Shown here piece by piece: positions 3,349 to 55,211 of a stretch of 64,000 nucleotides of DNA (the first letter of the stretch is position 1; each line of letters opens with the position of its first letter). The translations under genes were made by a program, and so were the position numbers. A model generated the notes under the pieces. It saw nothing but the letters and a program-made list of their open reading frames with translations, did no database searches and was not told the DNA's origin. The stretch is from Leptolyngbya sp. BL-A-14 (GTDB lineage Bacteria; Cyanobacteriota; Cyanobacteriia; Leptolyngbyales; Leptolyngbyaceae): the NCBI GenBank assembly GCA_041937185.1, contig CP166621.1, forward strand, positions 2,260,571 through 2,324,570, read 5' to 3'.

Positions 3349-3432
3349 AAAGTTTTGAGTTTTGAGCAGCGCTAGCCTCCGAAGGAGGCACTTTGTAAAT
3401 GCGCCGACAAGCTAGAGAGTTTTGAGTTGATC
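3349..3432 (+). repeat. Dispersed ~70-bp element, copy A (core ...CTAGCCTCCGAAGGAGGCACTTTGTAAATGCGCCGACAAGCTAGAGAG...), flanked by GAGTTTT heptamers
   Basis: Matches copies at 20627..20780 and 40731..40800 (reverse orientation). The hairpin CCTCC-GAA-GGAGG here corresponds to GCTCC-GAA-GGAGC in the other copies, a compensatory change. Confidence 0.7.
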
Positions 3433-3701
3433 AATACTCAAGCCTTAAAATTCATCCCTTCTCATTCAGCACTTCCATCTACACATAGAAAATGAGCCGC
3501 TACGGGTCGGGTCGGGTTAGGATATGTCACTTTCTCAGGTGGTTAACCAAAGGCGTGGATCTTGTCCTGCAAGTAACGTGCCATTGACCGTTCCTGATTT
3601 AGCCTACACCCAACGGTGGGTATTGGTTAGTCTGCTGTGATCGTCCACTTAAAAACCTCATCATCGCCCAGTGCCCTCAGTGGACAGTTCAACCCATTGG
3701 T

Positions 3702-11159: not shown

Positions 11160-11828
11160 ATGGCAAAAGCACCAAAGCCCAGCGAACAACGCATTGTGCT
11201 GGAGAAGATTAGCTGGGAGCAGTTTGAAACCATCCTGGCGGAAATGGGCGCAGAACGCACAACGCGCTTTACCTTCGATCGCGGTCGCTTAGAAATGATG
11301 ACGCCGCTTGATGAGCACGATCGCTGCCATAAGCTCATCGAGTCGCTGATTCTCGTCCTCGCTGATATCATGCAGTTGCCCGTAGAAGGCTACAAAGCGC
11401 CGACCTTAAAGCGATTTGATTTAAATATCGCCATAGAACCCGACACAGGCTATTACCTTCAGCACGAGCGGGACATGCGCGGCAAGGCGGCGATCGACCT
11501 GGCAATCGACCCTCCACCAGACATTGTGCTGGATGTTGCTTTAAACAAAAGCACCCTGGATCGGCTTGCGCTCTACGCCGCGTTAGGCGTTCCCGAAGTG
11601 TGGCGCTATGTCAGTCAGCCGGGAGACGATTTTTTGAAGGGAAATTTTCAGCTTTATACCTTAGACGGCACTGGCTACGTTGACTCTACCAGTGGGTTTG
11701 CCTTTCCCTTTTTGCCCGCTGGGCGGATTCTACAATTTATTGACGAGAGCGATGCGTTAGGGTTAATGTCAGCGCTGCGATCGCTGCGCGAGTGGTTGCA
11801 AGACAGGCACAATGACAGCGGCTATTGA
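11160..11828 (+). CDS. Uma2-family (DUF820) endonuclease
   Basis: Characteristic layout: ...IDLAIDPPPDIVLDVA...STLDRLALYAALGVPEVWRY. This is a PD-(D/E)xK-like core of the kind abundant in cyanobacteria. Confidence 0.8.
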   Translation: MAKAPKPSEQRIVLEKISWEQFETILAEMGAERTTRFTFDRGRLEMMTPLDEHDRCHKLIESLILVLADIMQLPVEGYKAPTLKRFDLNIAIEPDTGYYLQHERDMRGKAAIDLAIDPPPDIVLDVALNKSTLDRLALYAALGVPEVWRYVSQPGDDFLKGNFQLYTLDGTGYVDSTSGFAFPFLPAGRILQFIDESDALGLMSALRSLREWLQDRHNDSGY

Positions 11829-16750: not shown

Positions 16751-16785
16751 CCCACTGGCAGGTGAGGGAAGGGATAAGGGATGGA

Positions 16786-16930
16786 AGTTTTGAGTTTTGA
16801 GTTGAGCAATCAGCGATCAGCAGTCAGCCTTTTAGCCTTTAGCCTTCTCCTGCCCACTCCCCACTCCCGACTCCCCACTCCCTCATTTCAAAGCCTTTTA
16901 GCCTTTAGCCTTTTCCTGCCTCCTGCCCTC
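16786..16930. repeat. Mixed STRR heptamer arrays (GAGTTTT, TAGCCTT, CCCCACT), intergenic
   Basis: gttttgagttttgag...agccttttagcctttagcctt...cccactccccactcccgactccccactccc... Confidence 0.8.
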
Positions 16931-20567: not shown

Positions 20568-20626
20568 CAGCCCACAGCACTCAACGTTTCGATTATAAGT
20601 TGATGCGTGTAGTCAGCCTTCTAAAG

Positions 20627-20780
20627 GAGTTTTGAGTAGCACTAGCTCCGAAGGAGCCACTTCGTTAATGCGCCGACAAGCTAGAGAGTTTTGAGTAGCA
20701 CCAGCGCCAAAGGAGCCACTCCGTGTTTCTTGTATACCGGAGGCTTTATGCGCAGTTACGCTAGAGAGTTTTGAGTTCAG
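20627..20780 (+). repeat. Dispersed ~70-bp element, two tandem copies (B1 and a diverged B2)
   Basis: B1 is gagttttgagtagcactagctccgaaggagccacttcgttaatgcgccgacaagctagagagttttgag. B2 is more diverged (...ccaaaggagccactccgtg...atgcgcagttacgctagagag). Confidence 0.7.
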
Positions 20781-28229: not shown

Positions 28230-28856
28230 TTATTTGACCGCTCTTAACACTTGCTCAGCCGTCAGTTTTAAGCTTGGAAAGGTGAGTGAAACGATCGGCT
28301 GATTACCTCGAAGCTGTTGAATCTCATACTCCCCATTCACTAACGTACAGATAGAGAGGGTAGGTTGTTTAGGTTTCCCAATGTGTCGAGTTCCGCCTAA
28401 GCCTGCATAGTCTGCAATCCAATATTCGGGAATGCCTAAAACTGCGTAATCTTCAACCTTACGGGCATAATCATTTTGCCAGTTGCTACTCACAACTTCC
28501 GCTACAAATTTAATCGAACTGCCCAGCGTGAGAATTGACTGATCAGACCAGAGCGGCTCTTTGGCTAGTTCATCGCGATCGACAACTAGAACATCAGGGC
28601 GAAAGGCGGTCATGCCACTGTTAGAAGGGCGCAAGAGTCCCCGTTGGAGAACGAACCAAGGTAAATCTGTTCCGTCGATTTGGACGCAGAGCTTTGCAGT
28701 AATGAAGGCTGCTACCTCTTCATGCAAGCCTGTTGGTTCCAAGTCGAACACCTCTCCATCGATCAATTCGTAGCGGTTGTCGCTGCCATAACAGGCGAGA
28801 AATTCGTCAAAGCTAAGTGGCTGCTGTTGTATTGGCTGGTTGATTGCAATAGTCAT
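28230..28856 (-). CDS. Uma2-family (DUF820) endonuclease
   Basis: ...FRPDVLVVDRDE...FVAEVVS...GIPEYWIADY... core. Confidence 0.8.
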   Translation of the reverse strand: MTIAINQPIQQQPLSFDEFLACYGSDNRYELIDGEVFDLEPTGLHEEVAAFITAKLCVQIDGTDLPWFVLQRGLLRPSNSGMTAFRPDVLVVDRDELAKEPLWSDQSILTLGSSIKFVAEVVSSNWQNDYARKVEDYAVLGIPEYWIADYAGLGGTRHIGKPKQPTLSICTLVNGEYEIQQLRGNQPIVSLTFPSLKLTAEQVLRAVK

Positions 28857-29569: not shown

Positions 29570-29609
29570 AAGTTCTTAAAATCTTTGCAGAATTGAACAA
29601 GTTGATTTA

Positions 29610-40654: not shown

Positions 40655-40730
40655 GGAAGGGAGGACGGAGAAAGGCTAAAGGATGAAGGCTAAAGGCTAA
40701 AAAGCTGATGGTTGACTGCTTTCTTTCAAC
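40655..40730. repeat. AAGGCTA heptamer array
   Basis: gaaaggctaaaggatgaaggctaaaggctaaaaagc. Confidence 0.75.
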
Positions 40731-40800
40731 TTAAAACTCTCTAGCTTGTCGGCGCATTAACGAAGTGGCTCCTTCGGAGCTAGTGCTACTCAAAACTCCC
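40731..40800 (-). repeat. Dispersed ~70-bp element, copy C (reverse orientation)
   Basis: ttaaaactctctagcttgtcggcgcattaacgaagtggctccttcggagctagtgctactcaaaactc is the reverse complement of copy B1. Confidence 0.7.
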
Positions 40801-40857
40801 AGGCTGATCGCTGGTATTCGACACAAGCTTTTACGGATGCAGTCTTCTGTCTAATGC

Positions 40858-51274: not shown

Positions 51275-51480
51275 GACAAGCAGAAGGCAGAGGGCAGAAG
51301 GCAGGGGGCAGAGGGCAGAAGGCAGGGGGCAGAAGGCAGAGGGCAGGGGAAGCAGGGGGAGCAAGGGCTGAAAAGGACAGGAGATAAGAGACGGGGGACA
51401 GGAGTTAGAAGTTGAGAGTCAGGAGTCAGAAGCCAGAATTAACTCAGAACTCAAAACTCAAAACTCAAAACTTAAAACTC
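51275..51480. repeat. Largest STRR array in the window: ~10 GGCAGRR units, then GTCAGRA units, then ACTCAAA x4
   Basis: gcagaaggcagagggcagaaggcagggggcagagggcagaaggcagggggcagaaggcagagggcag...gagtcaggagtcagaagccag...actcaaaactcaaaactcaaaacttaaaactc. Confidence 0.9.
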
Positions 51481-54542: not shown

Positions 54543-55211
54543 ATGACGCGATCGCCTGCCCTGAATCAAGAGATCCATTATCCCGACAGCGATGGGCAAC
54601 CAATGGCTGACAATACCAAACAGTTCAACTGGATTGTGTATATCAAGTTGGGCTGTGAAGCGCTGTTTAAGGATGATCCCAACGTCTTTGTGGCGGGTGA
54701 TTTGCTCTGGTATCCCGTTGAAGGAGACAACACGATCAAAGCGGCTCCCGATACGATGGTCGTGTTTGGTCGTCCCAAGGGCGATAGAGGTTCCTACCAG
54801 CAGTGGAAAGAGGACAACATCACGCCTCAAGTGGTGTTTGAAATCCTTTCTCCTGGAAATACGCTGGTCGAGATGGCGAAAAAGTTTCGCTTTTATGAGC
54901 GCTACGGCGTTGAAGAATATTACCTTTATGACCCCGACAAAGGCGATTTTAGCGGCTGGCTTCGCTCAGGCGATTTTTTAGAGGTCATTGAAACCCCGAT
55001 CGGCTGGATCAGTCCCCGTTTAAACGTCCGCTTTGAGCTAGTGGAGGGCGAACTAGAGATCTATCGCCCCGATGGGGAGAAGTTTGCGACCTATCTAGAA
55101 CTGATCGAACAGACCGAACAAGCTCAACAGCAATTAGAACAAGAACGGCAACGATCGTACAAACTAGCTGCCAAACTGAAAGAATTGGGCATCAACCCAG
55201 AAGCGTTATAA
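54543..55211 (+). CDS. Uma2-family (DUF820) endonuclease with a C-terminal coiled coil
   Basis: ...PDTMVVFGRPKGDRGSY...VFEILSPGNT...GVEEYYLYDP... Confidence 0.75.
   Translation: MTRSPALNQEIHYPDSDGQPMADNTKQFNWIVYIKLGCEALFKDDPNVFVAGDLLWYPVEGDNTIKAAPDTMVVFGRPKGDRGSYQQWKEDNITPQVVFEILSPGNTLVEMAKKFRFYERYGVEEYYLYDPDKGDFSGWLRSGDFLEVIETPIGWISPRLNVRFELVEGELEIYRPDGEKFATYLELIEQTEQAQQQLEQERQRSYKLAAKLKELGINPEAL

Follow-up and report, generated by a model that had tools for sequence, protein, structure and literature searches.

Copies of the element and the neighboring genes

The DNA analyzed, referred to here as the window, is a 64-kb stretch of contig CP166621, the closed chromosome of the freshwater isolate Leptolyngbya sp. 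BL-A-14 (PMC12341861). It contains four copies of a short repeated element (A to D, delimited by local BLAST) at three intergenic loci, and GAGTTTT heptamers bracket every copy, as the original prediction had claimed. The genome of the isolate also includes seven small circular contigs, and Leptolyngbya sp. CENA387, at 99.6% 16S identity, is a very close strain. Copy A is located in the spacer between the Sua5 gene and a gene for a 427-amino-acid protein, here called hetZ, whose orthologue in Stenomitos rutilans has a HetZ domain. Copies B and D are located in the spacer between a DUF1517 gene and ispF, and copy C lies between the convergent stop codons of an acylphosphatase gene (40651) and a TrpD-like gene (40858). 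A Pfam scan of the open reading frames (ORFs) of the window confirmed that all copies are intergenic. The further claim that they often lie near gene starts applies to A and B, which are just upstream of the starts of hetZ and ispF, but not to C. The heptamer run of copy A begins 48 nt upstream of the hetZ ATG (3302, minus strand), and copy B is located 60 nt upstream of the ispF start. The orientation of the element relative to the neighboring genes is mixed, with A, B and D antisense and copy C and the S. rutilans copy L001 sense.

Copy B, the canonical long form, extends from 20627 to 20696 on the plus strand. Its left flank GAGTTTTGAGT (20627-20637) is followed by the left end of the core (20638-20643), a 24-nt hairpin module (approximately 20644-20667, with the hairpin at 20645-20657), the right part of the core ATGCGCCGACAAGCTAGA (20668-20685) and a second GAGTTTTGAGT (20686-20696) that is common to B and D. 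Copy D (20686-20776, plus strand) directly abuts B and is a divergent long form with an extra 21-nt module at approximately 20726-20746. Copy C, on the minus strand (40729-40798), is also a long form and has its hairpin at 40768-40780. Copy A, also a long form, occupies 3350-3427 on the plus strand when its heptamers are included (3357-3427 by local BLAST) and consists of heptamers at 3350-3366, a 50-nt core at 3367-3416 and heptamers at 3417-3427; its hairpin, GCCTCC-GAA-GGAGGC, is at 3375-3389. With these limits, the predicted positions of the copies required only small adjustments.

Over 67 bp, copies B and C show 100% identity, which ends inside the flanking heptamers. Copy A is 91.5% identical to B (local BLAST). 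Four copies had been predicted and four are present, but D is no plain fourth copy: it has its two ends in common with B and matches it at 57 of 67 aligned positions (approximately 85%), and it carries 21 extra internal bases. A 35-mer core probe gave three matches in the window at up to 3 mismatches, versus none in 100 shuffles. The flank GAGTTTTGAGT occurs 15 times in the window at up to 1 mismatch, versus 1.2 occurrences expected.

The spacers that host these copies contain other conserved sequences. The sequence TATAATCGAAACGTTGAG (window 20592-20597, minus strand), 27 nt upstream of the ispF ATG, is kept in five relatives, with one or two substitutions in some of them, and the spacers of these relatives are otherwise unalignable. 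It is probably the -10 box of ispF, and the B/D pair directly adjoins the place where the -35/UP region is expected. Downstream of Sua5 and upstream of hetZ, a noncoding stretch of approximately 240 nt is 85 to 90% identical among BL-A-14, S. rutilans and Lyngbya sp. HA4199-MV5 (window 3440-3690, L022 4900-5130 and L027 10670-10900), compared with approximately 55% identity at four-fold degenerate sites. This stretch contains the palindrome ACCCACCGTTGGGT and is a candidate hetZ regulatory region or noncoding RNA. The heptamers directly upstream of hetZ are arranged as an inverted pair, which reads (GAGTTTT)4 ... (AAAACTC)3 in S. rutilans (L022 5134-5193) and degenerate in BL-A-14 (window 3417-3460) and HA4199-MV5 (L027 10920-10968). 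The presence of inverted pairs in three species indicates that a long hairpin upstream of hetZ is conserved in position. Copy A is located in the right arm of this hairpin. Expression of hetZ and ispF could differ between close relatives through the copies placed directly in front of hetZ and of the putative ispF core promoter, and such effects would be a side effect of the landing sites.

GAGTTTT arrays

All 11 distinct copies, from three organisms, are located between GAGTTTT runs and have the same orientation relative to the heptamer. The window also contains two GAGTTTT arrays without the element. One, of 2.6 units (16785-16803, plus strand), lies in the PurF-T2SSE spacer and continues into other heptamer types. 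The other, of 5.7 units (51441-51480, minus strand), is upstream of cobU and has a flank, CCTGGGAGTTTT, similar to the one on the left of copy C. The element thus occupies 3 of 5 GAGTTTT arrays in the window, 1 of 4 in S. rutilans (36 kb fetched through genes) and 0 of approximately 6 in HA4199-MV5 (60 kb). Since the arrays are common and are mostly empty in the relatives, the arrays appear to have come first, with the element as a later occupant.

The window has a G+C content of 51% and contains 60 copies of HIP1 (highly iterated palindrome, GCGATCGC) as well as dozens of heptamer arrays of the STRR (short tandemly repeated repetitive) type. The element resembles the STRR heptamer tandem repeats in that STRR-type GAGTTTT arrays flank it, in a window rich in other heptamer arrays, and in that its short form, described below, is exactly 28 nt. 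This corresponds to four heptamer lengths, so that the short form stays in phase with the array. The element differs from STRR sequences in its unique, nonperiodic core, which is conserved between species and is present or absent as a block in arrays that otherwise exist without it. Many of the heptamer arrays in the window are composite, with a recurring order of types, GAGTTTT -> xCAGCxx -> AGCCTTT -> CCCACTC (e.g., 16785-16914).

Distribution and nested structure

An exact 19-mer scan of one genome per species, covering 185,579 species, detected the element in only two organisms, in addition to two chance matches. It was found at three loci in S. rutilans HA7619-LM2 and at one locus in an Oscillatoriales metagenome-assembled genome. 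A looser pattern applied to metagenomes yielded two more S. rutilans loci, and a sixth S. rutilans copy is located at the site orthologous to locus C. The detected copies therefore number four in the 64-kb window and at least six in S. rutilans. Plasmid and viral collections contained no match to the element.

The copies in S. rutilans include short forms. These are found in L006, L010 and L014 and, in diverged form, in the sixth copy, and they read GAGT-AGCGCTATGCGCCGACAAGCTAGA-GAGTTTT. The core of approximately 25 to 28 nt, (GAG)TAGCGCT-ATGCGCCGACAAGCTAGA, exists alone in S. rutilans and can form a GCGC-TAT-GCGC mini-hairpin. The long form consists of this core and the 24-nt hairpin module GCTCCGAAGGAGCCACTTCGTNAA, which is placed in the loop of the mini-hairpin. 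A clean 24-nt indel, GCTCCGAAGGAGCCACTTCGTGAA, separates long from short copies within one larger S. rutilans repeat unit of approximately 170 nt. Copy D corresponds to the long form with a further 21-nt module. Together, the 24-nt indel and the 21-nt insertion in D indicate that the element is a nest of modules of 21 to 28 nt. Neither the 24-nt nor the 21-nt module was found on its own in 336 kb searched with blastn-short and nhmmer --max. Their independent mobility is therefore suggested solely by the indels, which could equally have arisen by deletion.

The larger S. rutilans unit starts with AATACCAG and ends with ...GTAGCTCAATGAAAGRAAA..GGTAT, with the short inverted ends ATACCA/TGGTAT. 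Units carrying the element are located at L003 3730-3900, L006 2170-2300 and L014 1190-1330. One possibility is that this unit is a MITE with the small element inside it. A permissive search of the unit against Rfam gave no match. The sequence AATACCAG is also present 9 nt from copy C (window 40815-40822, minus strand).

Orthologous sites and sequence conservation

At locus A, the Sua5-hetZ spacers of BL-A-14 and S. rutilans align at 85%. The window has ACTCAAAACTC-element-CTCAAAACTCAAAAC where S. rutilans has an uninterrupted heptamer run at the same point, and the site is also empty in HA4199-MV5. Compared with the empty HA4199-MV5 site, the filled locus gained the core and one GAGTTTTGAG, 59 to 60 nt in all, which is the same as the spacing between B and D. 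The extra GAGTTTTGAG may represent a duplication of 10 bp, or it may belong to the unit itself. Because the flanks are themselves repeats, target duplications are unreadable inside the array. At locus B/D, the orthologous DUF1517-ispF spacers of S. frigidus, two metagenome relatives and HA4199-MV5 contain no element; in these relatives, the 50 nt next to ispF, including TATAAT, are conserved. At locus C, HA4199-MV5 has no element. A diverged short form is present there in S. rutilans, and the window has a long form identical to B, which indicates that the locus-C copy was overwritten or reinserted.

These comparisons of orthologous sequences demonstrate that copies were gained, lost or overwritten as discrete units inside preexisting heptamer arrays. 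The identity of B and C likewise demonstrates, within the aligned 67 bp, recent copying of the sequence from one locus to another, unlinked one. Whether each event was an insertion or a deletion we infer.

Between BL-A-14 and S. rutilans, the identity at four-fold degenerate sites of two orthologous genes was 0.53 to 0.56. Long forms at nonorthologous sites in the same two organisms match at 47 of 49 positions (96%). The six changes between A and B within one genome outnumber the two changes between B and L001 from different species. As judged from the aligned copies, the sequence of the family is thus far more conserved between species than neutral DNA. An identity of 96%, compared with approximately 55% at four-fold sites, indicates that the sequence either is constrained or selected, through its own propagation or by the host, or has moved between species. 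Passive drift of a family evolving in concert does not explain this difference.

Folding of the element

Copies B and C and three long copies outside the window fold the hairpin GCTCC-GAA-GGAGC, with 5 bp and a folding energy of -6.8 kcal/mol. The hairpin of copy A has 6 bp and a folding energy of -10.6 kcal/mol. In copy D, the GAA hairpin is broken by a G.A mismatch and the loop is AAA; the new bases create a CTCCG/CGGAG pairing. The original prediction described copy A as carrying a compensatory exchange of a G-C for a C-G pair and took this as a sign of selection on RNA structure and of a small structured RNA. In the structural register, the exchange is genuine, but it resulted from a 1-nt insertion in the 5' arm and a C-to-G substitution in the 3' arm and not from two substitutions. 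In simulations of five random substitutions and one insertion, with only the trials having at least two hits in the stem retained, a stem of at least 5 bp survived in 5.6% of trials and one of at least 6 bp in 0.7%, a post hoc comparison based on one copy. The retention of the stem in copy A is suggestive. A compensated hairpin would serve equally well as a recognition structure at the DNA level.

RNAalifold, applied to seven long copies, preferred a different stem, CTAGCT/AGCTAG, which overlaps the GAA hairpin, with a covariation term of -0.06 kcal/mol. The two structures are mutually exclusive, and the CTAGCT/AGCTAG stem contains one compensated pair, in D. The covariation sample of only seven near-identical long copies with three hairpin variants, one compensated and one broken case among them, has too little power. 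Folding of the whole element on both strands was no better than that of shuffled sequences (z-scores of -1.9 to +1.7). Comparison with Rfam gave no matching family, with no hit at gathering thresholds for the whole window and only noise at E <= 10 for the element. No promoter or terminator common to the copies was found.

A tRNA or tmRNA origin of the element was rejected, as none was found. Avoidance of CTAG was also rejected as a cause of the CTAG-rich ends, with CTAG not unusually rare at an observed/expected ratio of 0.74.

Nature of the element and its mode of spread

Small dispersed repeats (SDRs) reportedly measure 21 to 27 nt, nest in one another and lie within tandem heptamer repeats. 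The element shares these features with SDR1 to SDR8 of Nostoc punctiforme and other Nostocaceae: its modules are 21 to 28 nt long, and it is dispersed, intergenic, nested and located in heptamer arrays. SDRs are very small mobile repeats of Nostocaceae, one of which, SDR5, inserts precisely into HIP1, and no SDR-like repeat was reported outside the Nostocaceae (Elhai et al. 2008, Genome Res 18:1484). Precise insertion at defined short sites and the absence of a known transposase are further points of likeness, as is presence or absence at orthologous sites, with sites A and B empty in relatives and site C occupied by a different form. The differences are that the host of the element belongs to another order, Leptolyngbyales, and that its modules are seen only as one composite.

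The best reading of the element is that it is a very small mobile or copied DNA module, of a recognized repeat type, rather than a small-RNA gene. We assign a probability of approximately 0.65 to the explanation that it is a small noncoding, nonautonomous, SDR-like dispersed repeat residing in preexisting tandem GAGTTTT arrays. The element would spread into these arrays by a copy-and-paste process, with the conserved core, including the hairpin, as a recognition feature for a trans-acting function encoded by the host or by an element. The heptamer would be the target or would provide short flanking homology. Each event would add the core and one GAGTTTTGAG, and nested modules could accumulate. 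This explanation is favored by the constant target and orientation in 11 of 11 copies, by presence and absence at orthologous loci A and B/D together with the different form at C, and by the nesting seen in the 24-nt indel in S. rutilans and the 21-nt insertion in D. The match of 47 of 49 positions at nonorthologous sites, versus 0.53 to 0.56 at four-fold sites, and the evidence against an RNA gene from Rfam, signals, folds and mixed orientation point in the same direction, as does the precedent of mobile SDRs, one inserting into HIP1 (Elhai et al. 2008). The points against it are that no transposase or other function that would mobilize the element was found among the 57 window ORFs, that clear terminal inverted repeats are lacking, that neither added module was found by itself in the 336 kb examined and that precise deletion between flanking direct heptamer repeats would also leave empty orthologous sites.

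Several of these observations could also arise by passive spread without dedicated machinery, in which gene conversion, template switching or unequal recombination would act through the flanking homology of the heptamers and the hairpin and core would have no role. The restriction of the element to a single type of heptamer array and a single orientation, the lack of inverted ends, and the identity of B and C exactly up to the heptamers and no further are as such a process would leave them. The same applies to the B-D tandem with one heptamer block in common, the apparently overwritten copy at locus C and the filled locus A, which equals the empty site plus the core and one GAGTTTTGAG. The flanking homology is, however, very short (11 to 12 nt to the left of B and to the right of C), and neutral concerted evolution should lead to drift between species, yet the identity of the element is 96% compared with approximately 55% at four-fold sites. 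Passive spread would therefore need selection on the sequence or recent horizontal transfer in addition, and we consider it unlikely. A structured small RNA or cis-regulatory RNA, with its GAA hairpin kept by selection on RNA folding and acting on neighboring transcripts or in trans, would account for the compensated and even lengthened hairpin of copy A, the compensated pair in the alternative outer stem of D, the strong conservation between species and the location of two loci just upstream of gene starts. Against this, each helix has one compensatory event and the helices exclude each other, the GAA hairpin is broken in D and the fold z-scores are ordinary. Neither an Rfam family nor a common promoter or terminator was found, the element is antisense to the flanking genes at A and B/D but sense at C and L001, and relatives that retain the genes and promoters have the same spacers without the element. 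An RNA function of this kind is accordingly judged highly unlikely, and a small structured RNA, one of the two candidates of the original prediction, is not supported.

A GTAG is present at the 5' junction between heptamer and core (GA-GTAG-CGC...) in 9 of 11 copies, and GTAG-tagged REPs (repetitive extragenic palindromes) with stems of 5 to 13 bp exist in cyanobacteria. The element could accordingly be REP-like and moved by a Y1 tyrosine transposase, either a RAYT (REP-associated tyrosine transposase) or a TnpA of the IS200/IS605 type. The GTAG would then be the tag, the adjacent hairpin the recognition structure and a short specific sequence within the heptamer the target, entered without target duplication. 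REP, BIME and REPIN elements with their RAYTs are likewise short extragenic hairpin repeats that have GTAG at one end and are dispersed and sometimes adjacent, and the hairpins near the end of the element, the lack of inverted ends and of a clear duplication, and the always identical flanking target agree with this. However, the stem geometry does not fit, with stems that are either too short or too far from the tag. The short form has a GCGC/GCGC stem of only 4 bp that takes in the G of GTAG, and the long form has a 5-bp stem separated from GTAG by 5 nt. An unpaired GTAG directly abutting a stem of 5 to 13 bp, as in REPs and REPINs, was not found in the element. No inverted doublets (REPINs, in which two REPs form a hairpin) were seen, B and D being in direct orientation, and a Pfam scan of 57 window ORFs revealed no domain of a Y1 transposase, RAYT or TnpB. 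Mobilization of this type is thus improbable.

The description of the family as a MITE-like dispersed element held with respect to discrete presence and absence at orthologous sites, identical copies at unrelated loci and a constant GAGTTTT target. The element shares with bacterial MITEs (e.g., Nezha of Anabaena/Nostoc) that it is nonautonomous, intergenic, polymorphic for insertion and foldable. It is not a classical MITE, however. It measures 49 to 70 bp compared with 70 to 300 bp, and it has inverted ends of no more than 6 bp (CTAGCT/AGCTAG) or 4 bp (TAGC/GCTA) compared with 15 to 30 bp in MITEs. Moreover, no matching insertion sequence was found, and the element is built of nested 21- to 28-nt modules.

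A more specific and rather speculative proposal is that the 49-nt composite is the conserved recognition module of an uncharacterized mobility system. Such a system would either do without its own transposase or rely on an enzyme of the host, and it would write discrete sequence blocks into STRR arrays. If this were true, SDR-type elements would extend beyond the Nostocaceae, and the family would offer a tractable case for the spread of heptamer arrays and their tiny passengers, since the genome is closed, identical young copies exist alongside paralogous and orthologous sites that are empty, and constraint between species is strong. The spread of the very small dispersed repeats and STRR arrays of cyanobacteria has been unexplained since they were first described. 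The family described here combines nested 21- to 28-nt modules, gain and loss at orthologous sites and conservation between species far above the neutral level. It is also present outside the Nostocaceae, and no repeats of this kind had been reported there.

Other features of the window

The only mobile gene in the window belongs to an intact insertion sequence of the IS5 family (29609-30518). This insertion sequence encodes a transposase (29644-30459, minus strand) with DUF4096 and DDE_Tnp_1 domains, terminates in perfect inverted ends of 17 bp, AGAGGCTGTTTGAAAAG, and shows a target duplication of TTA. Derivation of the element from this insertion sequence was rejected, as the ends AGAGGCTGTTTGAAAAG are unrelated to it. 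In Tildeniella nuda, the sequence upstream of ispF is interrupted by a transposase that likewise has DUF4096 and DDE_Tnp_1 domains in Pfam (L007 9019-9876). Several overlapping 21-bp tandem repeats (30607-30791) adjoin the insertion sequence and are located mostly inside an ORF at 30641-31111 (minus strand) that has no Pfam match.

Five genes of the Uma2 family (putative restriction endonuclease-like) are present in the 64 kb, at 11160-11828, 28230-28856, 33130-33687, 37860-38459 and 54543-55211. The gene at 31158-32843 (plus strand) encodes a protein of 561 amino acids with weak matches to the major-vault-protein shoulder, vault repeat and SPFH/Band 7 domains, an unusual combination for a bacterium.
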